A DNA stretch of 64,000 nt, taken from a virus. Shown piece by piece: positions 11,455-45,711 of this stretch. The stretch's first letter is position 1, and every line of letters starts with the position of its first letter. The position numbers were made by a program, and so were the translations under genes. Where the stretch lies: IMG/VR virus record IMGVR_UViG_3300023238_000004; one strand, given 5' to 3'. The notes beneath the pieces were generated by a model. The model had not been told where the DNA came from and searched no databases. It saw only the letters and a program-made list of their open reading frames with translations.

Positions 11455-11991
11455 ATGATTTGTACTAAATGTAACACAGACAAACCAGCTACAGACGAAT
11501 TTTTTCAAGTTCGAGCTGATACAAAGAAGTTTCGCAAACAGTGTCGTGACTGTAGAAGTCTGCACACTAAAGAGTACCACGACCAAGATAGGAAACTTGT
11601 AAACAAGAGAAACAGAGATAGCTATGCAAAAAATGCTAAAGCCAGGATATCCAAGACGGTTGAGTATAAAAGAAAAAAAAGGAAAGAATGTCCTCAGTTT
11701 AGAATAGAGGATAGCCTAAGAACTAGGGTTTGTCGTGCTTTGAAAGGGCTACCCAAAGTAGACAATACAAAGGTCTTAATAGGATGTTCTATGAAAGAGC
11801 TAAGACAGCACTTAGAATTACGATTTACTGAGGATATGACTTGGGATAATTACGGAGATTGGCACATGGGCCATATTAAGCCCTGCTGTCAGTTTGACTT
11901 GACAAAACCAGAGCAGCAAAGGAAGTGTTTCAGCTATAAGAACTTACAGCCATTATGGGCCGCAGATAATTTAAGAAAAGGTGGAAAATAA
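11455..11991 (+). CDS. Free-standing HNH homing endonuclease with N-terminal CxxC zinc motif
   Basis: CTKC...CRDC at the N-terminus; C-terminal MTWDNYGDWHMGHIKP...NLQPLWAADNLRKG; paralogous to 36418-37161. Confidence 0.8.
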   Translation: MICTKCNTDKPATDEFFQVRADTKKFRKQCRDCRSLHTKEYHDQDRKLVNKRNRDSYAKNAKARISKTVEYKRKKRKECPQFRIEDSLRTRVCRALKGLPKVDNTKVLIGCSMKELRQHLELRFTEDMTWDNYGDWHMGHIKPCCQFDLTKPEQQRKCFSYKNLQPLWAADNLRKGGK

Positions 11992-12554
11992 TGACCATTC
12001 TTCAAGGCCCTATTGAAAGCGGATGGGTAGTCGCATCTGGTGAAGGTAATTTTTACGATCAAAACATACAAGGTAGCGGAGGTCAAGATATAGATCTTCA
12101 CGCCACTAGTGGTCAAGTGCCTAGGTTCTATTCTGGTATAAATAGACACTATCCTAGTCCAGAAACCCACGAGTCGGGTGTTCTTCACACTTATCCTGAA
12201 AATTCTGGGTCTTATGAACAGATACTAGGCAATTCTGGAGAAGTCCAGGGTATTAAAGACTCTTTTCTTTCTCCACCTAGAGACATTTCCTACAGCGAAG
12301 AGCCTTACTATGCAAATCTTGGTGTATTCTTTCCTTACATACACCACTATCCAAGGTGGGTTCCGCCTGCGACCAGTCTCTTCTCGACGATAGAAGTGCC
12401 TGTGCCGTTTAAGGTGGATTATTCTCTTACCTTTTCGCCCACAAATAGCTATAATAGATATAGCGAGAGAGACGTAGACTACGATGCCGTAGATAGTAGC
12501 GGAGACCCGATTTTTACAGACGAAGCAGGAAAACCACCAACAAGGTTTGGATAA
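11991..12554 (+). CDS. Hypothetical structural-module protein, 187 aa
   Basis: ORF overlaps the HNH stop (TAATG) in the + strand block. Confidence 0.6.
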   Translation: MTILQGPIESGWVVASGEGNFYDQNIQGSGGQDIDLHATSGQVPRFYSGINRHYPSPETHESGVLHTYPENSGSYEQILGNSGEVQGIKDSFLSPPRDISYSEEPYYANLGVFFPYIHHYPRWVPPATSLFSTIEVPVPFKVDYSLTFSPTNSYNRYSERDVDYDAVDSSGDPIFTDEAGKPPTRFG

Positions 12555-33715: not shown

Positions 33716-36421
33716 TTAGATTCTCTTTTGTTCCCAATAGTTCCTCTTCTCTGCTATCTTGAGCATTTCCCGGTAAGCTAGATCAAAGTTAAAGGGTATT
33801 CTTACCACCTTACCATCAAAACCTGCCGAACTCTCATTCTCATAAACCTTAGAGGTAGAAGAAGTCCTACTCTCATACATAAGGTCTCTAGTAAGACGAG
33901 ACTCAAACTGAGTGTTAAGTCTGTCAGGCTCTCCTAGTGCATTTACAATCAACCACTGAGCCAATTGCTTGTGCGTAGTCTGCGGAGGAATCTCTGGTTT
34001 TGGTTTTGGTTGGTGAATTCTTGGTGCAGACTCCCAAGTTTTCTCTACTGGTTCAATCTCGAATGAATCGAATACCTTTGCAAGTATGTCTCCAGTCTGA
34101 TCCCACTGATAATGCTTCTTAAATCTGTCTAAAGTTATGTGCCCCAAAGCGATCCTGTCTTCTTTGTCGATATCGAAGAACCTACCGAAAACCATCGCGG
34201 TGTCTTCGTTATCTGGAACGGCCCTATAGCATCCTGTCTCTAGTTCTTTGTATAGAGCTTTGGGCTTCAAGGGCACTCCGGCTAGATTGCTAACAACACT
34301 GCTCATAGCACTGTAGTCAACAGAAACAACGGGGATACCACAAGCAGCCGCCTCTACTTGTGGAAGGCCAAATCCCTCGCTGTTAGCATATTGAACATAT
34401 AAGTCAAAGCAATTCATCACTTCTGACAACTGTTCATAGCTAGCACCCTGCTTAACATTGCACATGGTGGCGTTGTATTTACCAGTGAAAGGCGATTCAC
34501 AGATAGCCCCCGCAAACAATGAAGCAAATGTCTTGTTGGTCTCTGGGCAAATGTAAGTAAAATAAACACTTGAAGAGACACAGTTCTGCTGTAGTAACTC
34601 TGGGATATCCCAACCTAGGTCTGGATAACTTGTGTGACAGTACAGCTTGTACTCATTAGGATTCTCTTGTTGCCCTAAGAACAGAGCCCACGCCTCAAAG
34701 AGATCTGGGTAAAGCTTGCGTCTTTGATTACGCATAACCGTGCCCACAATCTTTATATCCTTATCTAGCCCCAGGTTTTCTCTACAAACAGCTTGGTCCA
34801 TTGGCTTATACGCAGGATTAGCAGATGGAGGGGCTGTCCCAACATAGTTGATCTTCCCTCCAGACTGTTCCTTCATAACGTTGCCAGACCACTCAGAGTA
34901 AGACAGAACTGCGTCAGCACTCGCATAAGTACTAATCCACTGTCTAGCTTGTGGTGCTGAGTCTGCCGTTGGCATAATTACCCACTTGAACATCTTCCTA
35001 AAGGGAGATCGCTCTACAAACTCGCAATTATGAATACAAAAAGAAGATACATAGGTATTGTCTTCTTCTACTTCAAAGTTATGAACTTGTTCTCCATAGG
35101 ATTGTTTAATAACCTCTTTAACAGTTAACCAAGCGTAGCCATTTTTAATTCTTGTCGCTTTAGCTATTTCTTTATTGAGGAGGTTGTCATAAATAGTCTT
35201 AAATCCCTCTAAGCTATTAGACCTAAAAGAGAATATGTATCTAAAATAATCTTTGTCGATTCCTTTGATATTATTTTTATTTAGATTGAAGGATGGCAAT
35301 ATTCCAATCCTTAGGCACATCCTAAATACTTGGTGTGCTAATTGCTCACTCTTTGTGCAGTAAGAAGCTCTTTCCTTGTAATAACCTCCGTCACCCCTAA
35401 ATAAGCCACACAAAAACGACCTTATACACTCGTTATTTGAGAAAAACACCTCATCAGAAAGCTTCTTGTCTCCAGCCAAAGAACCGCAAAACTTTAGACA
35501 ATCTTGTGATATTCTTTTGCCGTAACACCTTACTATTGCCGTATTCCCAAGTATCTTTATTTTAGCTTCTTTATCATAAAAAACCTTAACAAGAGAGATA
35601 AAGTCATCAATATGACTAGACTCATTAGCATTAAAGGTTAACTGAATACCTTTGTATTTGTTGTCCTCTTTTAAGCCCTCGTACATTATGCAGCCTTCGG
35701 CCATATAGTAGCCTAAGAATCTACAAAAGTCATTCTTGTGATTTTTATCTCCCTCTTTGTCAATTGGGTAAACCAATATGTCGTTTTTCTCAATGCCTTG
35801 GGAGTCTACCCATTCTAAATTTTTAGGTGAAAACTTATGCACTGGTAGGCTTTTCTCTCCATTTCTTTTTAAGCAATAGACCGGATGATCGTCTGTTAGT
35901 TCTACATTAAATGGGCAATTTTGCACATTAATAGTGTGGAGATCTCCGAAATAACTCTTTTTAAATGTGTTTATTACTCTTCTATATCTTCCTTCGTGTG
36001 TTAAGACCAAGTCATCGACTTTTATGTCTTTGATCTTCTTGATGGAGTTTTTACATACGATATTAGTATTAGGAGTTAAGCACATCCAGAAGTCTCTGAT
36101 ATCAAAGACAATGTCTGGCTTAAAGTCTAGGCAAACTTCTTCAAAGATGAACTCGCCAAATTGATTGAAGGGACTTGAGTCGTATGACTGCATCTCTTCT
36201 CTACTAGCTCTAGGTTGAAACTCCTTGTTTGGTTGTACTCCATAGTACCTCCAAGGCAAAGATAGCCCCCTAGGATCGTTTCTTTGACCATAGGCGGCTA
36301 ATTCGGCTAGTTCGTATTTTCCTGTGGAGTTTAGATACTCCATGATTTCTCTAGTGTAGGTAGCATAACCAGTGTTTAGAAAGGTCGCCTCACTACAGAA
36401 GAGGATTCTTTTTTTTCTCAT
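33716..36421 (-). CDS. GT-B (family 4-like) glycosyltransferase containing a LAGLIDADG intein
   Basis: ILFCSEATFLNTGYA N-terminus; NSEGFGLPQVEAAACGIPVVSVDY motif; intein between FWM and CEF. Confidence 0.88.
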   Translation of the reverse strand: MRKKRILFCSEATFLNTGYATYTREIMEYLNSTGKYELAELAAYGQRNDPRGLSLPWRYYGVQPNKEFQPRASREEMQSYDSSPFNQFGEFIFEEVCLDFKPDIVFDIRDFWMCLTPNTNIVCKNSIKKIKDIKVDDLVLTHEGRYRRVINTFKKSYFGDLHTINVQNCPFNVELTDDHPVYCLKRNGEKSLPVHKFSPKNLEWVDSQGIEKNDILVYPIDKEGDKNHKNDFCRFLGYYMAEGCIMYEGLKEDNKYKGIQLTFNANESSHIDDFISLVKVFYDKEAKIKILGNTAIVRCYGKRISQDCLKFCGSLAGDKKLSDEVFFSNNECIRSFLCGLFRGDGGYYKERASYCTKSEQLAHQVFRMCLRIGILPSFNLNKNNIKGIDKDYFRYIFSFRSNSLEGFKTIYDNLLNKEIAKATRIKNGYAWLTVKEVIKQSYGEQVHNFEVEEDNTYVSSFCIHNCEFVERSPFRKMFKWVIMPTADSAPQARQWISTYASADAVLSYSEWSGNVMKEQSGGKINYVGTAPPSANPAYKPMDQAVCRENLGLDKDIKIVGTVMRNQRRKLYPDLFEAWALFLGQQENPNEYKLYCHTSYPDLGWDIPELLQQNCVSSSVYFTYICPETNKTFASLFAGAICESPFTGKYNATMCNVKQGASYEQLSEVMNCFDLYVQYANSEGFGLPQVEAAACGIPVVSVDYSAMSSVVSNLAGVPLKPKALYKELETGCYRAVPDNEDTAMVFGRFFDIDKEDRIALGHITLDRFKKHYQWDQTGDILAKVFDSFEIEPVEKTWESAPRIHQPKPKPEIPPQTTHKQLAQWLIVNALGEPDRLNTQFESRLTRDLMYESRTSSTSKVYENESSAGFDGKVVRIPFNFDLAYREMLKIAEKRNYWEQKRI
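35027..36082 (-). mobile_element. Intein (352 aa) with LAGLIDADG endonuclease
   Basis: Starts CLTPNT; block B LTDDHP; FLGYYMAEG and FLCGLFRGDG; ends VHNFEVEEDNTYVSSFCIHN with +1 Cys. Confidence 0.92.
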
Positions 36422-37161
36422 TGTTCTATTTTATTTCCTTTTTTGAAGTTATCAATAGCCCATAGGGGTTGTAGGTTTGTGTAATGCCATGCTATTTTTA
36501 GTTGATCTTCCATGCCATTAGAAGCAAAATCAAAGCTGCTTAATGGCCTTATATGATCTACATGCCATTCTCCATAATTTTCCCTAGTCATACCATCTTG
36601 GAATTTAGATTCTAAATAGTCCCAAAACTCTTCCGTTTTAAGCCCTATGTAGTCAAACGTTTTTAACTTCTTCTTTTGGCCCCTTAGTCCTCTTGTTATA
36701 CTATTCCTCATATTCCTGTTCATTCTTTGTATTGGGTCGGCATTGCTTTTCCTACTCTGTGCTAAGCATTTTTCTGGATTGTTCTTTCTCCAGGTTCTAT
36801 TTCGCTCCCTCCTTGCTTCTGTGTTGTTTCTACAATACTCTTGTATCTTTTCTTGATTTTTGAGGTAGTATTCTCTTGCACTCCTTTTTCGCCTTTCTTC
36901 ATACTTAGGATAACTTTCTTTCACCATTGCTTTATTACACTCTTTACAATAGCTAGGTTGACGTTTTCTATTACCTTGAGGATCTTTTTTATTTGTCTTG
37001 CACTTAGCACACAAAGTACTCACAGGTTTTCTAGGTCTTGGAGTATAGTACAAATCCCTAAGGCACCTTTTACATGTATTATTTTTGCCGCTTTTGTGAC
37101 GTTTGCTATTTCCAAAACGACTTTCATCAAGATATTCTTTGCATCTTCTACAGGTTTTCAT
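36418..37161 (-). CDS. Free-standing HNH homing endonuclease with CxxC repeats
   Basis: MKTCRRC...; GMTRENYGEWHVDHIRP...HYTNLQPLWAIDNFKKG; AGGGAG RBS supports a start at 37161. Confidence 0.85.
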   Translation of the reverse strand: MKTCRRCKEYLDESRFGNSKRHKSGKNNTCKRCLRDLYYTPRPRKPVSTLCAKCKTNKKDPQGNRKRQPSYCKECNKAMVKESYPKYEERRKRSAREYYLKNQEKIQEYCRNNTEARRERNRTWRKNNPEKCLAQSRKSNADPIQRMNRNMRNSITRGLRGQKKKLKTFDYIGLKTEEFWDYLESKFQDGMTRENYGEWHVDHIRPLSSFDFASNGMEDQLKIAWHYTNLQPLWAIDNFKKGNKIEQ

Positions 37162-37177
37162 TTTTGCTCCCTTGTCT

Positions 37178-37206
37178 ATTATAGTCAGAAGGTTTGGAAA
37201 AGACAA
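37178..37206 (-). promoter_or_regulatory. Sigma70-like promoter TTGTCT-N17-TATAAT
   Basis: Intergenic, immediately after the DnaE C-terminal gene; 17-nt spacer. Confidence 0.75.
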
Positions 37207-37207
37207 C

Positions 37208-39190
37208 CTAAATATCTGAAATTTTTTCAACGATCAGACTTCCGTCGCCCTTCTCTGAACTTCCGTAGATCATCACGTTGTTTCCTTCAAATAAGCTGTA
37301 CTTATTGTCTTCTCTCGCCTCTGGAAAGACCACAACGCTGTCAATTGAGCAGGTTTCGTCCTCAATGGTCAGGAAGGACATCTCTTTTCCCTTACTTGCC
37401 CCTTCTTTCTTAACCTTCGTGTTAAACACTCGGGTAATGTTTGCGGCGATTGTTAGCTTCTTGCCCTTTTTCCCGTCTGCTAGTTCCTTACAGGTTGTAT
37501 TGCCGCACATGTCTGTGGTTTCAATCTTAGACATAGAGACAGGGCAACCTAAGAACTTCACTTCCTGGTCAATGATCCACTCTGGATCGTCTTCTAGGTC
37601 GTAGGGTGGGTTCTGTAGCATCTTAATCTCGTTCAAGATAATCTGCTTTCTGGACTCTTTACTGGTCCCGCCGCCCTCTTTTTTTGTAGGTGCTAGATCT
37701 CTAAAGCAAGACTGCAAATCCTTCCATCTTCTCTTAGGGTAGTTTTCTATTACCCAGTTGGTCTCAGCCTTCGTCAAGATACGAAAGATCTCATAGTCAT
37801 ATAAGACCTTGTTTCTCGTAACCTTGTCTTTGATTCCACGGAAGAACCCAATAGACCCAAGCGTCTTGAATACCGTAGAGTTCACCTTAGGAGAGAAGAA
37901 CAACAAGATCTCCATCCACGATGTGTTCTCAATCTTTTTATTTAGATGTACAAATAGATCTTCAACAGCAATGAAAGCCTTGTCCCCATTCTTTCCGGTC
38001 AAAGACTTAATGTCCTTAATGCCAAAGTAAATGGTGTCTCCAACGCAATTGAATTGACGTTTGAAGTTAGCAATACTAGGAGTTTTCAATTGAAGATCAA
38101 AAAGCTTAGCTTCTGACGCTAGTTCATAAACCTCTTGGTGAGCGTCCTGCTTGTCTTTTGCGTAACGAAAATAGGCTACAAAGAACTGTTTGATATAGTG
38201 TGCCTTGAAATAAGCACTCCAATATGAATCCAATCCATAGGCAACCGCGTGAGAATTACTGGTGGCTATTTTATTAGCATAAAAAAGATGGCTATCACTA
38301 TCAACCTCAATGTCCATAGTGGGCATTGTGCCCAAGCTTTTTATTCTAACTATTTTACTAGATTTCATGTCTACACAATCTTGAACAACTATCTCGTGAA
38401 AATATAACAGAATATCAGAAAGAGGTCTAATAACACCATCTTTGCACAAGAATTTATGCTCCATTGTGCATTTTATAGTTTTACCACACTCTAGCTCTAA
38501 CTCATAGACCTCTAGTGACCCGTGGTCATAAGTCTCTAAGACTTTTACGTATTGGTCAGACAATAAACAGGGAGATAGTACAAAATCTCCAGCTTTAATT
38601 TCTGATAGCTGCTTTTCACCGTCTGGTGTTTGTACTACTGAATCCTTCGTAATAGACTTGTTAAAACTGTATCGAGCAGACTTCTCAATCCACCCGAAGA
38701 TTTCTTCTGCGTCTTTGGCTTCAACCGTCCCTACTTTCTCGCAACCAATGATAAAGTCTTCCTTGACCTTTGCCATCACGTCTGCTTTCTTTTTACCAAT
38801 GGCCTTTCTAAGAACATCAGCCTCTGACTCAGAGAAACCCGCAAGCTCTTTGGCTATAATCATAGCTTGTTCTTGATAGATCAAAACCCCGTAGGTTGGA
38901 GCTAAGAATGGCTCAAGAGAAGGATGTAGATACTCAACGGGTTCTAGTCCGTGCTTTCTGTCTACATAGTGCTGGGACATAGACTTGCCCTGATACATAG
39001 CTTTCAAAGAGCCAGGACGAAGAATAGAGATCAGAGCCGCAAGCTCTTCCATATTTTCTGGCTTGACTTTCTTGGACCACGATCTTCCAAGATTGCTTTC
39101 AAGTTGAAAAATACCCTTGGTTCTACCTTCCGCGAAAAGCTTCCAGACTTCTGGATCATTCATCGGAATATTATCAATGTCAACTGTCAT
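37208..39190 (-). CDS. dnaE: DNA polymerase III alpha (DnaE), C-terminal piece (fingers/HhH/OB) with a mini-intein
   Basis: GIFQLES, ILRPG, TYGVLIYQEQ, LRKAIGKKK, YSFNK|intein|SHAVAY, IYFGIKDIK, OB-fold MSFLTIEDET..IDSVVVFPE. Confidence 0.92.
   Translation of the reverse strand: MTVDIDNIPMNDPEVWKLFAEGRTKGIFQLESNLGRSWSKKVKPENMEELAALISILRPGSLKAMYQGKSMSQHYVDRKHGLEPVEYLHPSLEPFLAPTYGVLIYQEQAMIIAKELAGFSESEADVLRKAIGKKKADVMAKVKEDFIIGCEKVGTVEAKDAEEIFGWIEKSARYSFNKSITKDSVVQTPDGEKQLSEIKAGDFVLSPCLLSDQYVKVLETYDHGSLEVYELELECGKTIKCTMEHKFLCKDGVIRPLSDILLYFHEIVVQDCVDMKSSKIVRIKSLGTMPTMDIEVDSDSHLFYANKIATSNSHAVAYGLDSYWSAYFKAHYIKQFFVAYFRYAKDKQDAHQEVYELASEAKLFDLQLKTPSIANFKRQFNCVGDTIYFGIKDIKSLTGKNGDKAFIAVEDLFVHLNKKIENTSWMEILLFFSPKVNSTVFKTLGSIGFFRGIKDKVTRNKVLYDYEIFRILTKAETNWVIENYPKRRWKDLQSCFRDLAPTKKEGGGTSKESRKQIILNEIKMLQNPPYDLEDDPEWIIDQEVKFLGCPVSMSKIETTDMCGNTTCKELADGKKGKKLTIAANITRVFNTKVKKEGASKGKEMSFLTIEDETCSIDSVVVFPEAREDNKYSLFEGNNVMIYGSSEKGDGSLIVEKISDI
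38255..38656 (-). mobile_element. Mini-intein (134 aa), Ser1 ... Ser-Asn, +1 Ser
   Basis: SITKDSVVQTPDG; CTMEHKF (block B); MDIEVDSDSHLFYANKIATSN. Removal restores FNKSH. Confidence 0.88.
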
Positions 39191-39341
39191 ATTTTTCCCA
39201 CACAATCAAGCAGTAATCAATGTCCGTATTTGGGACATAGCCGTCATCCCACCAGTAGTCTAAGTTACAATCTGGACACTGGCCACCATTCCATGTTTTG
39301 TCCTCAAATTCACATTCACATCTTGGGCAAGTTATGTCCAT
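39180..39341 (-). CDS. Small zinc-ribbon protein, 53 aa
   Basis: MDITCPRCECEFEDKTWNGGQCPDCNLDYWWDD...; AGGAG RBS; below the ORF-track cutoff. Confidence 0.6.
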   Translation of the reverse strand: MDITCPRCECEFEDKTWNGGQCPDCNLDYWWDDGYVPNTDIDYCLIVWEKYDS

Positions 39342-39350
39342 TCCAATCTC

Positions 39351-40046
39351 CTATTCTATGTATAGTCCACCATTAGCAAACGCCTTGTCAATCTTAGGGC
39401 TAAGTGTCTTATACATTGCCCTTCTAGTTTTAAGGAATTTAATAATGATGTTTGCCGTATCTTTTACGTCTTGAAGAGCGTCGTGAGCGTTCTCGCTTTC
39501 CATGCCCATTCGCTTTCTGACGTTGTCCATACTAATAGACTTGATGGTAGGGTCACTCTCGGTCCACAAGAACATGTCGTCCATCATGTCGTATTTCTTG
39601 ATAGGATTAAAGAACTTGTTCTGGCCCTTCTTGTCATCCCAGCCTCCATATAACTTTGCCATTCTGTTAATAATTGGCATATCATAGTTGATAATGTTGT
39701 AGCCAGCAGGAATAGGAGCAAACCAAGTCGTACCCTTCCAGTTGTGCTTGTTTACGAAGGCTAAGAACTTAGTCCACACAGCCTTTGGCTTAGGTGCCTT
39801 GGCGATCTGTTCTCTAGTCTTTCCCGTGACCTTCAAAGCCTCTTCCTCAAGAGGTGCCAGCCCCGCCGCAATAGCCTTGTCGTCATCTGTTTCTGCCCAG
39901 ATTTCACTGTTAAACTCGCCCCCCACTTTCTTCATTTCAAGAGTTCGTCCATGTAGGGCGATTGCAGCAAGCTGCGTTGGTTGACACGTATGTGGATCTC
40001 TGCCACCGGTTTCAAAGTCAAATACGATGAAGTCTCTATCTGCCAT
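39351..40046 (-). CDS. dnaQ: DnaQ/epsilon-like 3'-5' exonuclease (DEDDh)
   Basis: IVFDFETGG, AGYNIINYD and HDALQD motifs. Confidence 0.88.
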   Translation of the reverse strand: MADRDFIVFDFETGGRDPHTCQPTQLAAIALHGRTLEMKKVGGEFNSEIWAETDDDKAIAAGLAPLEEEALKVTGKTREQIAKAPKPKAVWTKFLAFVNKHNWKGTTWFAPIPAGYNIINYDMPIINRMAKLYGGWDDKKGQNKFFNPIKKYDMMDDMFLWTESDPTIKSISMDNVRKRMGMESENAHDALQDVKDTANIIIKFLKTRRAMYKTLSPKIDKAFANGGLYIE

Positions 40047-40194
40047 AATTGTTTATCTCCTTTTGTTTGTCCCATGTTTGGAGTATACTTAAAAATTTTC
40101 TACACTTTCTGTTCAATCTAAAGCCATTTGGGCTTTTATACATCAGATTGTACATCTTCCTCATTTCGTCCTGAGAATAAAACTCTATAATATC
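40036..40194 (-). pseudogene. Possible 3' stub of a LAGLIDADG-type endonuclease gene
   Basis: Translates DIIEFYSQDEMRKMYNLMYKSPNGFRLNRKCRKFLSIL...*; resembles the MY....LxRK..F tail of phage LAGLIDADG enzymes and contains the AAGGAG RBS of dnaQ. Confidence 0.4.
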
Positions 40195-40204
40195 TTAAAA
40201 CTGG

Positions 40205-40705
40205 TTAATAACAAGCTAATAAAGAATGGTTATCTGAAACAAATACGCAAAAATTATGCTTACCATCAACCATGCTAACTTTTTTAGACTCGTAATAGTC
40301 ATACAAATAACCCTCGATTAAGCTATTGTCTGTAATTATGAACTTGGGAATCTCACCATAGTTGTCTAGCATAACCTTGTTGCAAAGTACCTTTAGAGCT
40401 TCCGTAAACACGCCGGGATCTCCATCTTGATCGTAAACAGTCATGTTTGCATTTCCAGCGTAAAATAACAAATTCTCTATATCTTTGTTCACTTTCGGAG
40501 AATTTCTCTCCCAATCTAGTTTGCTGCTCATGTGTTCTTCTCCTAGGGGTGTCTCGAAGAGGTCTACGTTCTCTTCTCTGAATTGTTTTAGTTTCTCTTT
40601 CTGTGCCGCCGCTTCTGGGTGATTTGGATGATCCCTGACAGCCTGCACTTCTTGTCTGTAGATCTGTCTCACAAACTCGTCTTTGTTACTGCTATTGATT
40701 TCCAT
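40205..40705 (-). CDS. Hypothetical protein, 166 aa
   Basis: ORF track; an internal RBS+ATG (MSSKLDW) suggests a possible fusion of two ORFs. Confidence 0.5.
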   Translation of the reverse strand: MEINSSNKDEFVRQIYRQEVQAVRDHPNHPEAAAQKEKLKQFREENVDLFETPLGEEHMSSKLDWERNSPKVNKDIENLLFYAGNANMTVYDQDGDPGVFTEALKVLCNKVMLDNYGEIPKFIITDNSLIEGYLYDYYESKKVSMVDGKHNFCVFVSDNHSLLACY

Positions 40706-40904
40706 CTAGTTTCTCCAATTTTGCGTATCCAAATATCGCCCTATGTAATAGCTCAAGCGGCCATCCCCACCAGGGCACGTAAAACTCACAAGTAGAAATC
40801 TCTCTGCATGGGTTCTTACCAGCGATTGGCTGACCTTCTCTTGTCCTAAGCCACCATCTGCATAGCCACCTTGGTCTAGAGTTTCCTAGTCTGCATTCGT
40901 TCAT
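40692..40904 (-). CDS. Hypothetical protein, 70 aa
   Basis: GGAGG RBS; Trp/Cys-rich. Confidence 0.5.
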   Translation of the reverse strand: MNECRLGNSRPRWLCRWWLRTREGQPIAGKNPCREISTCEFYVPWWGWPLELLHRAIFGYAKLEKLDGNQ

Positions 40905-40992
40905 CTTTGTCCTCCGATTTTCTTTCCGTCTTTGTCAATGACCACAACTTTGTCGCCTTCTTTGACTATCTTGGTTTCGTCTTGGCTCATGT

Positions 40993-41247
40993 CTACCTCG
41001 TTTGTAAATATGGGTCGGTCTCTTTACACAGATCAAGAACACGTTCTTCCCAGCCCTTATAGTATCTACGGTTGGGTGTGCTATTCTCCATGATTTGTTT
41101 GATATCTTTCAAGGTAGAGTTTTGGAACTCGACCATAAGTCTGGCGATCTCTTCTGTGTCGTCTGACCACCCCTCCCCAAGCTCTTCGTCTTTCTTTCTT
41201 ATTAGCTCAAGAGCTTGTTTCTTTGCATTCATCTTTTTTTTCTCCAA
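40993..41247 (-). CDS. Hypothetical protein, 84 aa
   Basis: ORF track. Confidence 0.5.
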   Translation of the reverse strand: MEKKKMNAKKQALELIRKKDEELGEGWSDDTEEIARLMVEFQNSTLKDIKQIMENSTPNRRYYKGWEERVLDLCKETDPYLQTR

Positions 41248-42085
41248 TTAGTTCTTGGATTTCCATAAGCTTATCAAGCAACATGAGACCCAAGATATCA
41301 AATTTAACGTGACCCAGTGCTTCTAGGTCGTTCATTTCTAGTCCTGCAATCATTTCGCCATTCTTTTCTGGCAACATAGGACAAACCTTGTCAAGAGGCT
41401 CCCTAGAGATAACCACACCAGCGGCGTGTTTACCTTGACTCTTGAATGTGCCCTCAAGTCTAATAGCCTGATCGAAGTATGGAGCATAGTCACCTTTTAA
41501 GTTTCCCTCTTCATCTAAGTGGCACCACTGACGCAAGCTTTCTGGGTCATTGATGAGGGTCCATCTGATAATAGAACGATCCTCTTCATCCATCAATTCA
41601 AGTTGGTCAGAGATAGCCGCTTCATCAGGGATTGGCTTAGTCATAGCGTTCATTTCATTGAAACCACAAGCTTTGTTCATACGCAAGACTTCCTTGAGAG
41701 AACTTCTACCTTGAAGTCGCCCATAGGTAATCATCTGGCTAACGTTCTCTGCTCCATACCTATACTTGAGATAGGCAATCACTTCATCACGCTTATCTCC
41801 TGGAACGTCGATATCAATATCGGGCAGGGATACGTGTCCACGACCATAATCTAAAGACTTATTAAAGTCAGGTCTATCGGCCTTGTCGTAAATCCACAAT
41901 ACATAGCTATTATTTAGGTTTCCTTGACTATAAAATTCTCTATTTGAAATTAAAAATCTGTAGTATTCTACACATTGATCTATAGTAGAAATCAAATCAA
42001 GTTCATTTTGAAGATGAGGATTACGACGCACCTCCACAAGCTTGTCTTTGTTATGATTTATTCCAAAGTCTGTAATTTTTGCCAT
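41207..42085 (-). CDS. dnaE: DnaE catalytic (palm) piece
   Basis: SLPDIDID (two catalytic Asp), QMITYGRL, QGKHAAGVVIS, KFDILGL (third Asp). Confidence 0.92.
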   Translation of the reverse strand: MAKITDFGINHNKDKLVEVRRNPHLQNELDLISTIDQCVEYYRFLISNREFYSQGNLNNSYVLWIYDKADRPDFNKSLDYGRGHVSLPDIDIDVPGDKRDEVIAYLKYRYGAENVSQMITYGRLQGRSSLKEVLRMNKACGFNEMNAMTKPIPDEAAISDQLELMDEEDRSIIRWTLINDPESLRQWCHLDEEGNLKGDYAPYFDQAIRLEGTFKSQGKHAAGVVISREPLDKVCPMLPEKNGEMIAGLEMNDLEALGHVKFDILGLMLLDKLMEIQELIGEKKDECKETSS

Positions 42086-42292
42086 TTTGATTCCAATCTT
42101 ATTTTTCCTGATAAATAATCTCTAACTTCTAGTATTTGAGGTAGAGATCCATATCTTAGTTCGTAAAGCTCTTGATTTTTCTTTTTGTTAAGGTTTCCCT
42201 CGTAAGGAAGCTCAAACCTTATTATTTCAATATTCTTTCTTAAATAAGAACAAACTCCAAAACATTGTCTAGGGTAAAACTTCTTATATTTT

Positions 42293-42568
42293 TTATTCCA
42301 TTGTTTCCCTATGCATAAAATCTTCAAAAGTAAATTCCTGAAAAGATACATTATCAGGAGTGTTTCTCCCCGAATTATAGAATCTCTGAAACAGTAAGTC
42401 ATACTCAATAGGGTCAATCTTTGTGATTCTAATAAGGTAAGAAATCAAACAACCAGCAGCAGAGTTATGCACAGCTAACCCTTCTACGTTGTAAGTGTGG
42501 GAGTTCTCGACGGTTAGATCGTTAACAAGTCCAGAGTATTTAATTTTTCTTTTCTTTTTTATTTGCAT
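42293..42568 (-). CDS. dnaE: Split-intein C-half (35 aa) plus a short DnaE extein
   Basis: MQIKKKRKIKYSGLVNDLTVENSHTYNVEGLAVHN|SAAGCLISYLIRITKIDPIEYDLLFQRFYNSGRN; IntC spans 42464-42568. Confidence 0.9.
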   Translation of the reverse strand: MQIKKKRKIKYSGLVNDLTVENSHTYNVEGLAVHNSAAGCLISYLIRITKIDPIEYDLLFQRFYNSGRNTPDNVSFQEFTFEDFMHRETME

Positions 42569-42579
42569 GGTGCCACTTT

Positions 42580-42714
42580 CTAGCTTTGAGGTAATTTGTC
42601 TTTAACTTCTACGATTGTTTTCTCATTTATAATAAAGTCTGGAAAATACATCCTAAAGACACCATTTTCGTCTTCATATTCAATTGGGTTGTTATAATAG
42701 AACCCCGACCTAGA
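42580..42714 (-). pseudogene. Remnant of a PD-(D/E)XK endonuclease between the split-intein halves
   Basis: In frame after the IntN stop: SRSGFYYNNPIEYEDENGVFRMYFPDFIINEKTIVEVKDKLPQS*, with a YxPDF...IVEVK motif. Confidence 0.65.
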
Positions 42715-43896
42715 CTATATTTCTGTGATTTCGTCAAATTCTGTCAAGTCTTTTGCTGTAACCCAGCCTCTATTGCTCGTTAAGAACTTGTGATCTTCTG
42801 TACACCGAATAATTTTGCCGTTTTCCATGGTCATTTCAATTATTTCTTCATCCACTAGATAAGAAAGTGTATCTGCAACAATTTGCGAACCACCAAAAGC
42901 GTCTACAACGCTTTCTCCTTTCTTTATTATAGAGATTGGTTTCAATAAGCCGTTAGACATTCTCACCCTCGTGTCTGGCAAAAAGCACCCTCTTCCTGGT
43001 CCGCTGATCCAGCCCTTGCTTTTGATGAAGTTAATGATGTCCCATACAATCAAGAAATAACCAAACAGCTTCGCCCCCTTAATAACTCCAAACTCTTCGT
43101 TGAATTGGTCTAGGTATCTTTGCTTGGCTTCTTCTTTTTCTACTTTGCCCGTCTTCCCAAGTAATTCATTCCAGCCTTGTCGGCATAGCTGCTTTAGATA
43201 CTCTTCCTCGGACTCTCCATTTGGAGTGGGGAAGGTTGGCAACATTGGCTTCTCAAGAATATCATACTCTGTACAAGAGTCTACAATACTGCAAATATCC
43301 TCACAAACAACTGCGTGATCCTTGTTAGGTACGCCAAAGCTATCTTCTGTGAAGAACTTGATATAGGGTTTTAGTTCGTCTTGAACTTTACCCTTACCAA
43401 TATACTTCATCATGTCGGGAAGGGGCACCTTCAACCCAGAGCATAAAGAAATTCTATGAATATCTACCTCTGACTTGTCCGTGTAGAAGTAATTCTTAAT
43501 CTTCCCGCCCTTCAAGTAATTATCGCCACCTGGGCACAGTGGCGTCTGTTGCTTACGTCCAACATAGATCAAGTTACCACGTTTGCAGTACTCTTTGATG
43601 ACAGTCATTTCATCTTGGTGCTGAATAGCCGACACAATTGCGATAAGGTCAAACCAGCCATCTTTGTTTTTAGAAAACAGACTAAACCCATCAAAAGAAC
43701 ACCCAATGATTGGCTTTATACCAGCTTTCTTACACTCTTGAAAGAATCGGACAGTGCCCGAGATACTCTTGTAATCAGAAATACCACATGCGGTATATCC
43801 ATTGTCTTTGCATTTCTTAACTAAGGCCTTGGGTTTTGAGAATCCTAGTTGTAAGCTGTAGTGCGTGTAGTTACACAGTGGTGCGAAATTTTCCAA
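42715..43896 (-). CDS. dnaE: DnaE N-terminal piece (PHP domain to GPGRG) plus split-intein N-half (90 aa)
   Basis: THYSL, GIKPIIGC, YFLIVWD, GPGRG|CFLPDTRV...CTEDHKF...AKDLTEFDEITEI*; IntN spans 42718-42987; GGAGG RBS before a TTG start. Confidence 0.92.
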   Translation of the reverse strand: MENFAPLCNYTHYSLQLGFSKPKALVKKCKDNGYTACGISDYKSISGTVRFFQECKKAGIKPIIGCSFDGFSLFSKNKDGWFDLIAIVSAIQHQDEMTVIKEYCKRGNLIYVGRKQQTPLCPGGDNYLKGGKIKNYFYTDKSEVDIHRISLCSGLKVPLPDMMKYIGKGKVQDELKPYIKFFTEDSFGVPNKDHAVVCEDICSIVDSCTEYDILEKPMLPTFPTPNGESEEEYLKQLCRQGWNELLGKTGKVEKEEAKQRYLDQFNEEFGVIKGAKLFGYFLIVWDIINFIKSKGWISGPGRGCFLPDTRVRMSNGLLKPISIIKKGESVVDAFGGSQIVADTLSYLVDEEIIEMTMENGKIIRCTEDHKFLTSNRGWVTAKDLTEFDEITEI

Positions 43897-43977: not shown

Positions 43978-45021
43978 TTATCCTGGGCTTTCGTAGTAGT
44001 CCACTTTGAATCCAGGCTTTTTAAGCTTTTTAGTAGCAGCGTCTATGCCGTATGTCTTTATCGTGTCTTCTACGTGTTTACACTTCATCTTTCCCGTCTC
44101 TGGGTCTATTTTACTAAACTCGCAAACGTACTTACATTTCCAACTATTTCTAGCAGAAGATACTGGCCTAGGCTTTTTAGTATTGCTAATTTCTTCAAAC
44201 TTTTTTCTTAGATGTTCAAGAAACATTTCGTCATCTTCTTTTCCATACATCATAGAGAAAGGTCCGCCGTCTCTTAAAAAGAGTATAGTCATTACTCTAT
44301 TTTCTACTTCTGGATATAATCTGGATAACGCGTGGTTGTACAACAATAGCTGAGGGTCTTTTTGCAGCTTTGCGTAGTCTTTAACTTCTCCAGTAGCAAA
44401 GTCTTTTCTTTGGCCACTTTTGTAGTCTACAACCTCTATAGTGTTGGAGTCTGGCAGCATTACCGAATCTATCGTTCCCTTGATAGATAGTTGCATTTTT
44501 TTACCTTCATGCTCGAAGTGTGCCCAGTCCTTCTCTATGGGTAAATCAAAGTGCTTCTCAATCGCTAAAACATTACTAGTTCTTGGGTCATATTCTTTTT
44601 TCCAGTTTTTAAGTCCTACATACACAAGTTTCTCTACGAACTTGAAAGTATCTTTAATGGTCTCATCGTCAACCTTTTCAGAAAACTTTGGTTTATTGAA
44701 ATCTAGTTCTGGATGAGAGGCCCCATAGTAGTCATAGCTTCTCCTAATAAGGTCATCTACAAATTTGTCTGTATGCAGCCCCTTTTTAGTAAACTTTACC
44801 AATCCTATCGCGTCATCGATAAAAGATTGCTTATCTCCGTCTTGTAGTATTTTTTTACACTTACCTAATATCTCCATAACTCGATGCGTGCAGGTGCCAA
44901 GGACCGCCTTAAGACCACTTGCGTTTTGATACCCAAGTCCATATATTTGATAGTATTGCATCTCACAAAAACTATGACAACCTAAAGAACTGCTTCTAAA
45001 ATAAGGAATTAGTATCCCCAT
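43978..45021 (-). CDS. PD-(D/E)XK (RecB/Cas4-like) exonuclease with Cys cluster
   Basis: CHSFC near the N-terminus; IKGTIDSV...EVVDYKSG; QLLLY; C-terminal WKCKYVC. Confidence 0.8.
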   Translation of the reverse strand: MGILIPYFRSSSLGCHSFCEMQYYQIYGLGYQNASGLKAVLGTCTHRVMEILGKCKKILQDGDKQSFIDDAIGLVKFTKKGLHTDKFVDDLIRRSYDYYGASHPELDFNKPKFSEKVDDETIKDTFKFVEKLVYVGLKNWKKEYDPRTSNVLAIEKHFDLPIEKDWAHFEHEGKKMQLSIKGTIDSVMLPDSNTIEVVDYKSGQRKDFATGEVKDYAKLQKDPQLLLYNHALSRLYPEVENRVMTILFLRDGGPFSMMYGKEDDEMFLEHLRKKFEEISNTKKPRPVSSARNSWKCKYVCEFSKIDPETGKMKCKHVEDTIKTYGIDAATKKLKKPGFKVDYYESPG

Positions 45022-45024
45022 GTT

Positions 45025-45711
45025 TCACTCCTTGTGTTTAAGTATTAGCTCACACTGTTCATATAAGTATTCTAGTGTAAACTGGTTTTTCATTATGTTG
45101 ATATCTTTGTGAACTAACCAAATGTTGTCTTTGGTGTACCCTTCTTCGCTGTCTATCCTATCCACAGAGACGGTTTGACAATTTTGCTTCTCTTTTGTTT
45201 TCTTAAAAGCTATTGGCGTCTTGGTCATCGCACACAAGCCTCCTTGCTCTTCATACTTGTCCCAAATGTCTTCAATCGTTATGTTAAAGTCTATATTTCT
45301 TCTTTTTGCTTGACATTTTACAGAATGAAAAAACCTACCAGGAATTGTGTGGTGAGATCTTTGCCTATTGTGGAAATCCTCTTGTTTTTGACTATAGGTT
45401 TTTTCTCTAATGGTGATTCCGTGTTTTTCTAGTGCTTTTCTAACTATAGACTTTCTTTTGAATCCTCCTAGCTCAGCCACCTCTTTCAATGTCATGTTTT
45501 TGTCTACATAGTATTCTTCTAAAAATTCTTTTGTGAAAGTTTTAGAGCTATCATACACGTGACCTCTGCTAATGCCATGACGACTCAACGCCTGAGACAC
45601 AGAGTTTGAAGACTTGATGCCAGTCTCTTTGGTTATGACTTGGATGCTTTTAAGTTGATTTACATAGTGTTCTTCAAGAAAATCTTTGGTTAACATGTCT
45701 TTTGGTCCCAT
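45025..45711 (-). CDS. HNH homing endonuclease, apparently intact
   Basis: Two FTKEFLEExY HTH repeats; QGGLCAMTK...SVDRIDSEEGYTKDNIWLVHKDINIMK. Confidence 0.85.
   Translation of the reverse strand: MGPKDMLTKDFLEEHYVNQLKSIQVITKETGIKSSNSVSQALSRHGISRGHVYDSSKTFTKEFLEEYYVDKNMTLKEVAELGGFKRKSIVRKALEKHGITIREKTYSQKQEDFHNRQRSHHTIPGRFFHSVKCQAKRRNIDFNITIEDIWDKYEEQGGLCAMTKTPIAFKKTKEKQNCQTVSVDRIDSEEGYTKDNIWLVHKDINIMKNQFTLEYLYEQCELILKHKE

Follow-up and report, generated by a model that had tools for sequence, protein, structure and literature searches.

A viral family C DNA polymerase in four reading frames, interrupted by a split intein, a mini-intein and an intein-free LAGLIDADG cassette

The dnaE locus and its four pieces

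We analysed a stretch of 64,000 nucleotides from the IMG/VR virus record IMGVR_UViG_3300023238_000004 (the whole stretch is called the window in the following and is the minus strand of G000:C1:108354-172353, G000 being this CheckV-complete record of 175,823 bp), in which a single DnaE, the polymerase III alpha subunit, is spread according to Pfam over four open reading frames (ORFs) on the minus strand, here named A, B, C and D (Table 1). The Pfam mapping bore out the initial annotation, made from the sequence alone, of a four-ORF family C polymerase with an exonuclease gene among its pieces. All characteristics of family C were found, namely a PHP domain, a palm with the GS motif and three catalytic aspartates, a finger domain and an OB fold, the latter matching D with 20.8 bits, below the Pfam cut-off of 27 bits; the Pfam family HHH_6 was matched in relatives only and not in the D of the window. 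Positions 1-260 of the DNA_pol3_alpha profile are distributed over A, B and C, and the first 83 residues of C have no family match in Pfam. The GS nucleotide-binding motif (GRGS) straddles the A/B border, and PDIDID and KFD lie in C. As had been annotated, the conserved RF.N..R / S.PDID stretch is divided between two genes, with B reading ...RFYNSGRN followed by 22 further residues and C having ...GRGHVSLPDIDID. Translation of A starts at a TTG behind a GGAGG ribosome-binding site, and the longest ORF of D begins at a TTG (39205), the ATG at 39190 chosen in the initial annotation being the likelier start.

The three breaks in DnaE have three different origins, and a fourth insertion lies inside D. 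In the account that we regard as probable, the C/D break is an ancestral split shared by the viral family, the A/B break is caused by a split intein, the B/C break by a LAGLIDADG cassette with assembly modules, and D carries a mini-intein. New among these is the intein-free LAGLIDADG cassette with a conserved C-terminal tail on B and a conserved N-terminal head on C, which is found here in a decayed state in a polymerase gene with four mobile-element scars. The initial annotation was correct in assigning a split intein to A/B and none to B/C and C/D, but the C/D break is not special to this genome. Mapping of the breakpoints in related phages, which it had suggested, led to a family-wide C/D break and to a B/C break that is separate, recent and patchy.

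No second DnaE, PolA or PolB was found in the complete 175.8-kb genome, and the four pieces are therefore the only replicative polymerase of the phage; an intact polymerase elsewhere in the genome, which would have turned the pieces into pseudogenes, is thus missing from this CheckV-complete record. Group 2.2 jumbo phages also have a split polymerase III alpha, but there a 'minimal' form without PHP is encoded at distant loci alongside a family B polymerase (Iyer et al., 2021; PMC7824862), whereas in the window the full-length DnaE (PHP to OB fold) is the sole polymerase and its pieces are adjacent. GenBank phages gave no nucleotide match and a best protein identity of 46% for the finger domain, so no cultured close relative was found.

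As the record is a metagenome-assembled virus, the four-ORF picture could in principle be an artefact of assembly or sequencing. The independent ENA contig L093 (1929 bp), however, contains the same stretch of B, endonuclease remnant, head-C and orf84, a small downstream ORF, at 99.5% identity (without a 166-residue ORF present in the window), which makes a misassembly unlikely. In addition, the A/B and C/D breaks recur in three further IMG/VR contigs (98-99% identity), and the same architectures are seen in dozens of contigs that are more distant, leaving an artefact with a next to negligible probability.

The C/D and A/B breaks and the intein in D

A search of viral contigs for the finger domain led to 80 loci, onto which the segments of the window were mapped by tblastn; 59 of these loci are distinct in sequence. 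Palm core, exonuclease and finger piece lie in this order and in separate reading frames in all of the 59 distinct loci, and A, B and C form one ORF in those loci of the family. The gaps on both sides of the exonuclease gene typically range from -28 to +35 nt, which is a pattern of translational coupling, often with overlapping stop and start codons, and are sometimes longer where extra genes have been inserted. With an agreement of 59/59 loci, a two-gene DnaE with the proofreader between its halves is the conserved architecture of a large viral family. The C/D break with its nested exonuclease is thus shared by all distinct related loci; that it lacks intein motifs was seen correctly, and no Rfam intron was found there either. 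A literature search aimed at a two-gene DnaE with a nested exonuclease returned no paper describing this layout. Normally, DnaE in this viral family consists of two genes, one for PHP and palm and one for fingers to OB fold, with the gene of a DEDDh proofreader between them, and the two halves and the exonuclease would presumably assemble non-covalently. The exonuclease of the window belongs to PHROG 192 ('DNA polymerase exonuclease subunit') and is an RNase_T member by Pfam, with the DEDDh motifs FDFET, NYD and HDALQD readable in its sequence.

L094 encodes head, palm and fingers in one 816-residue head-C-D ORF (L094:4977-9451), with a LAGLIDADG cassette present and an RNase_T-like exonuclease gene about 2 kb downstream (11671-12321), and palm and fingers on either side of an exonuclease gene are therefore not universal in the wider group. 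The finger piece of L090 (L090:7533-9856) shows one more break, which leaves a finger ORF of 272 residues and an ORF of 386 residues, with an Endonuclease_7 gene just upstream; the DnaE of this family is therefore a recurrent target of fracturing.

The A/B break carries the split intein that had been proposed for it, a complete class 1 element with Cys1 (CFLPD...), a TEDH block and the terminal VHN/S (the slash marking the junction), and its insertion point is precise, as intein-free relatives are contiguous at GPGRGSAAG. The matches to Pfam Intein_splicing and Hint are below cut-off; among PDB sequences, the N-terminal intein half (IntN) matches the NrdJ-1 intein (E = 1.6e-6) and DnaE split inteins. 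An intact endonuclease ORF of 251 residues sits between the intein halves of L088, and the 68-residue ORF in the corresponding gap of L005 aligns to its C-terminus (E = 7e-9). L004-L006, the closest relatives of the window, retain 95 nt more of the endonuclease fragment in the A-B gap. The split intein with its now-decayed Vsr-like endonuclease would have cut the first gene at GPGRG/SAAG, and a chain of 359 residues should result when A and B are joined again by protein trans-splicing. Split inteins and free-standing endonucleases, some of them Vsr-like, have been described in three DnaE loci (Dassa et al., 2009; PMC2677866), and the A/B break is a classic 'fractured gene' of this known kind. 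As in the metagenomic DnaE, gp41, NrdA/J and IMPDH loci reported there, IntN (90 residues) and the C-terminal half IntC (35 residues) lie on adjacent ORFs with a Vsr-like gene between them, DnaE of aquatic phage-like DNA being the host gene; in the window the endonuclease gene is a remnant (intact in L088). The B/C break resembles a fractured gene but has no intein halves.

Piece D was identified correctly as the fingers/HhH/OB chain, but its mini-intein of 134 residues had not been noted. It begins with Ser1 (SITKD...), contains a TMEH block and ends with ...TSN/S, the penultimate residue being Ser and not His, and it resembles the gp41-1 intein (E = 1.1e-13, residues 6-134). It is inserted at YSFNK/SHA and is absent, with contiguous flanks, from the more distant relatives L011-L087. 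By these motifs, D would also need cis-splicing of the mini-intein. The Npu and Ssp DnaE inteins are similar to it as well (E about 1e-8) and belong to the same FNKSH motif region; they are part of the cyanobacterial split DnaE (dnaE-n/dnaE-c), which is likewise a family C polymerase in separate genes joined by trans-splicing, though with halves far apart in the genome and a single break. The cyanobacterial DnaE intein sits just before FNKSH, whereas that in D sits after FNK and is contiguous, not split. Full LAGLIDADG inteins are present in the fingers of the head-bearing long DnaE pieces P0134, P0137 and P0149, at or near the site of the mini-intein in D.

The cassette between B and C

The B/C break is real and intein-free, as had been annotated, but it is not an empty gap: it holds the remnant of a LAGLIDADG endonuclease gene and goes back to a separate and recent event. 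In L004-L006 a single ORF covers both B and C, although these contigs are 99.4% identical to the window on the upstream side and 98.1% on the downstream side. DNA alignment to L005 delimits an insert of 516 nt (42343-41828) in the window, flanked by a GTATCY (Val-Ser) direct repeat. Lower identity to L004-L006, of 93.5-94.4%, is confined to the immediate flanks of this insert (230 nt on the side before it and 850 nt on that after it), as would be expected of a recombination or co-conversion tract from a homing event. Judged from these alignments, the B/C break is a recent, patchily distributed mobile insertion. At least eight gains or losses of the head, six of them forced by well-supported branches, are required on a quick maximum-likelihood tree of 142 palm cores, in a sampling that is biased towards head-bearing rows, many of which were fetched with a hidden Markov model (HMM) of the head; the C of the window (P0001) is sister to the head-less P0002 on this tree.

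The source of the insert can be read from L089-L092 and L094, where an AB ORF with a short tail is followed by an ORF of 226-310 residues, which overlaps the start of the next gene, and then by head-C. This middle ORF is a LAGLIDADG endonuclease (Pfam PF14528, LAGLIDADG_3), with 24-36 bits compared to a cut-off of 22.5 bits. When aligned to the L089 endonuclease, the window ORF at 42417-42058 matches residues 151-236 (62% identity over 86 residues, E = 2e-37) and corresponds to the last 86 codons of that gene, after the second LAGLIDADG motif; the first ~150 codons are lost and both motifs deleted. Since only the C-terminal part past the second motif remains, the LAGLIDADG endonuclease of the window is, by its sequence, dead, whereas both motifs are present in L089-L092 and L094. 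The deletion junction lies at residue 84/85 of B, the conserved tail core (TPDNVSFQEFTFEDF) being kept and the last seven residues of B being an out-of-frame reading of the endonuclease remnant. The start codon of C is located inside the conserved ...ESKW... codons of the endonuclease, as in L089, and the retained remnant therefore still supplies the native upstream region of C.

The cassette would have inserted just before the catalytic strand VSLPDIDID, its endonuclease targeting the conserved coding sequence of this strand, and would have carried no splicing machinery. Such an insertion would place the GS motif on the trans-spliced A~B chain and the three catalytic aspartates on C, and would at the same time bring the tail and the head that make the fracture tolerable. 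Later, the first ~150 codons of the endonuclease would have been deleted in the window without loss of the tail core, the head or the native start region of C.

The lack of intein motifs at B/C, already part of the initial annotation, was confirmed, and an intein was rejected there: Pfam returned no intein match, the junction residues are not conserved (...GHV, GRV, GYV, SYI or GRY before S, with Ala at +1 in the P0047 group, and V, Y, I or A before the S of SLPDID), and the head is modelled as all-helical instead of as a HINT beta fold. An intron was rejected likewise, as no group I or II intron was matched by Rfam in the window (E <= 1) or in five relatives (E <= 0.1) and as the head region evolves as a protein (see below). 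It could still be argued that a group I or II intron in the RNA, or ribosomal bypassing during translation, joins B and C into a single palm polypeptide, given that phage genes are often broken by endonuclease-bearing group I introns and that bypassing in T4 gene 60 is tied to a mobile endonuclease cassette (bioRxiv 10.1101/2022.08.31.505936). Besides the negative Rfam result, the 240-nt head is in frame with C and has its own ATG, fused forms read straight through tail and head, and the gap of 207 nt here and 700-930 nt in relatives is far past any known bypass, which makes a joining of this type hardly credible.

Tail, head and the proposed assembly of the polymerase

The initial annotation had mentioned extra non-DnaE tails on B and C; these are indeed present, not as random additions but as conserved modules travelling with the cassette. 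Eight sequences led to the tail consensus GR-x(3-5)-(I/V/L)-(S/N)-F-x-E-(F/Y/L). The tail is net acidic in all sequences counted (window, L089-L092) and its first part repeats the catalytic strand (VSLPDID) in degenerate form, without the aspartates. The 80-residue head is shared by 20 of the best 120 homologues of C, which are 266-295 residues long and cover at least 91% of it; P0019 is a twenty-first carrier, with the head inside a fused protein of 373 residues. Residues E28, Y41, Y42, N56, N59 and S60 of the head are invariant across 46 sequences, and W64 and K68 nearly so. Non-synonymous differences per site (pN, 0.34-0.55) were below synonymous ones (pS, 0.64-0.90) in 15/15 pairwise comparisons, and differences ranked 2 < 1 < 3 by codon position in 14 of the 15 pairs, indicating that the head evolves as a protein under purifying selection, less constrained than the core. 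In an AlphaFold2 (AF2) model of C with a mean predicted local distance difference test score (pLDDT) of 83, the head is confidently helical (pLDDT 75-93), and the core aligns to structures of polymerase III alpha (E. coli chains: residues 397-581) with Z of 6-12.6. A search of 1.84 billion proteins with the head HMM yielded no more than 37 clusters (at 50% identity); no match of the head was obtained in PDB sequences, Pfam or PHROGs. Its position is always N-terminal on the palm piece, or internal in the fused forms P0139 and P0156. In P0139, P0156 and P0019, tail, linker and head are read in frame within one palm, so both modules are tolerated in the folded enzyme and are probably adjacent there.

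The closest tested parallel is the ribonucleotide reductase gene nrdA of phage Aeh1, which is split inside its active-site barrel by the endonuclease gene mobE (PMC3045599), and in which the tails derived from the element are essential for the activity of the split NrdA (Crona et al., 2011; PMC3045599). The authors predicted similar tails on other fractured genes (PMC3045599). Like nrdA-a/mobE/nrdA-b, dnaE was split by a free-standing endonuclease in the active-site fold of an essential enzyme, with the catalytic residues partitioned, without RNA or protein splicing, with a unique C-terminal tail upstream and a unique N-terminal extension downstream, and with the endonuclease gene overlapping the start of the downstream fragment; here, too, unique extensions on both fragments arose with the insertion. 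Unlike Aeh1, the split enzyme is DnaE and not NrdA, the endonuclease LAGLIDADG and not HNH, and the extension a helical domain of 80 residues and not a short peptide; moreover, the cassette is spread over numerous divergent lineages (37 clusters at 50% identity) and is also seen as in-frame fusions, and its endonuclease is decayed here. By analogy, the DnaE cassette would be a second example of the Aeh1 type, of greater complexity and much wider occurrence. From the tail requirement in Aeh1 we infer that tail and head of DnaE may be assembly modules making the fracture tolerable. More specifically, but only tentatively, both may form a portable, non-splicing 'staple', a heterodimerisation module mobilised with the LAGLIDADG endonuclease, through which the enzyme could survive a cut in its palm that parts the nucleotide-binding GS motif from the catalytic aspartates, in analogy to a split intein but acting by binding.

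Such a staple may stem from a local duplication of the flanking palm elements; the tail would then imitate the catalytic strand and the head the palm helices, and the two chains would interlock. The head was compared to the preceding palm helices of DnaE with hhalign, which gave E = 3.7e-6 only with the shared SLPDID strand included. The collinear register of head and palm helices recurred in a MAFFT alignment and three hhalign runs. Some structural alignments put the head of the C model on E. coli residues 284-396, at a root-mean-square deviation of 6-8 Å. In a language-model atlas, the head alone led to PF07733 clusters (0.90), which may be fragments of the same proteins.

Several observations weigh against the account given above. 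The head has no significant similarity to any known interaction domain among PDB sequences and in Pfam, and the tail reaches a pLDDT of only 46-57 in an AF2 model of the L089 AB-tail chain alone. A head that is a degenerate duplicate of the palm helices lacks statistical support once the SLPDID anchor is left out, as the same register then gave values of 0.1 and 0.057, suggestive but not significant. In Aeh1, the tails are needed for a higher-order assembly step and not for the pairing of the fragments (PMC3045599), and the analogy does not prove a stapling role here. The tree of palm cores was sampled with a bias, many head-bearing rows having been obtained with the head HMM. C has only a weak Shine-Dalgarno match and, the endonuclease being truncated, its expression in this genome could be impaired.

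Some of these observations would also fit passive leftovers of the insertion that have no role, such as target-site duplicates and read-through, with the fragments assembling via the native palm interface alone: the tail starts as a degenerate copy of the catalytic strand (GRNT.D.VS-F.EF compared to GRNT..HVS-LPDID) and lacks a confident fold when its chain is modelled alone, a GR.HVS duplicate forms the end of the head, and the Aeh1 fragments pair without tails. We consider this unlikely, as the head is under purifying selection and conserved, like the tail motif, across lineages that are only ~50% identical, as the deletion of the endonuclease in the window ends precisely behind the conserved tail core and leaves the head complete, and as the in-frame fused forms retain both modules. 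A polymerase that is dead or dying from the B/C fracture and the truncation of the endonuclease, with the phage relying on the host replicase, could likewise be suspected from the weak ribosome-binding site of C and the loss of most of an endonuclease gene that normally overlaps its start. However, all pieces are open, the motifs examined in them are undamaged (B has GS, C has PDIDID and KFD, D has GIFQLES and FNK/SH), the upstream context of C matches that of L089 with its intact cassette, the same allele is found in an independent assembly, the split architecture has been kept in many lineages, and partners of DnaB, primase and exonuclease type are kept in relatives. A dead enzyme is thus very improbable.

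Therefore, from the complete split intein at A/B, no intein or intron at B/C and C/D, and no second polymerase in the genome, a three-chain core made from four genes is the most plausible product, and we infer a non-covalent assembly of the chains. The mature enzyme would consist of A~B, C, spliced D and the exonuclease. After trans-splicing, A~B would be a chain of 359 residues with PHP, N-terminal palm, GS motif and tail, C would contribute 292 residues with the head and all three catalytic aspartates, and D would have 531 residues once the mini-intein is removed.

The smaller ORFs and the surroundings of the locus complete the picture. orf84, the 166-residue ORF and a 53-residue ORF have no family match in Pfam or PHROG. 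Between orf84 and the exonuclease gene, the 166-residue ORF represents an indel of its own, absent from the near-identical L005 and also from L093; within it, 64 nt (40601-40538) are 89% identical to the L005 spacer. Further endonuclease-like genes flank the DnaE locus on both sides, with a 270-residue ORF with an EndoVII/HNH-type C-terminus (36418-37230, minus strand, PHROG 1035) following D and a 228-residue ORF with an HNH-like C-terminus (45025-45711, minus strand) upstream. DnaE is directly preceded by a gene for a PD-(D/E)xK / Cas4-like exonuclease (43978-45021, minus strand), as is also the case in L007, L088-L092 and L094, sometimes with an endonuclease-type ORF in between. This Cas4-like gene comes after DnaB, primase and a DNMK-like kinase in a syntenic replication module.

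Table 1. Pieces of DnaE, inserted elements and further ORFs of the locus (positions in the window)
Feature	Position	Strand	Evidence or remark
Piece A: PHP and N-terminal palm to GPGRG (residues 1-303), then IntN	42715..43896	-	Pfam PHP, DNA_pol3_alpha positions 1-65, Intein_splicing
IntN: 90 residues, begins CFLPD	42987-42718	-	within A
A-B gap, 146 nt: decayed free-standing PD-(D/E)xK (Vsr-like) homing endonuclease gene	42569..42714	-	DNA alignment to L005
Piece B	42293..42568	-	Pfam DNA_pol3_alpha positions 66-101
IntC: 35 residues, ends VHN/S	42568-42464	-	within B
B palm segment SAAG...RFYNSGRN, GS nucleotide-binding motif context	42463-42362	-	within B
B acidic tail, 22 residues	42361-42296	-	consensus shared with six relatives
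Inserted cassette compared to L005 allele: unique tail part, endonuclease remnant, head	41828..42343	-	DNA alignment
ORF with 3' remnant of LAGLIDADG homing endonuclease gene; overlaps start of C	42058..42417	-	homology from ~42318 to 42058
Piece C: helical head, then palm/thumb core	41207..42085	-	Pfam DNA_pol3_alpha positions 98-260
C head, 80 residues	42085-41846	-	helical in AF2 model
orf84: small ORF, 79-84 residues, close relatives only	40993..41247	-	no Pfam/PHROG match
166-residue ORF; indel absent from L005 and L093	40205..40705	-	no Pfam/PHROG match
DnaQ-like DEDDh 3'-5' exonuclease, presumed proofreader	39351..40046	-	Pfam RNase_T 1.1e-11; PHROG 192 4e-27
53-residue Cys-rich (zinc-ribbon-like) ORF overlapping start of D; close relatives only	39180..39341	-	no family match
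Piece D: fingers, mini-intein, rest of fingers, HhH region, OB fold	37208..39205	-	Pfam finger domain 5.5e-50
D fingers before intein	39205-38657	-	boundaries from sequence
D mini-intein, 134 residues (D residues 184-317)	38656-38255	-	Ser1, TMEH block, ...SN/S
D rest of fingers, HhH region, OB fold	38254-37211	-	Pfam

Taken for itself, the locus displays three routes by which a host gene can survive mobile elements, namely trans-splicing, cis-splicing and an intein-free route with extensions borne by the element. The latter has hitherto rested on one studied case, the NrdA of Aeh1, and is represented here by a conserved and widespread cassette, whose intact, decayed and fused forms all exist in nature and can be compared. 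If tail and head indeed drive assembly, they would be a possible tag for the reassembly of split proteins. For the phage, a catalytic palm shared by two polypeptides, in a three-chain core with a separate proofreader, would test how far an essential enzyme can be fragmented.

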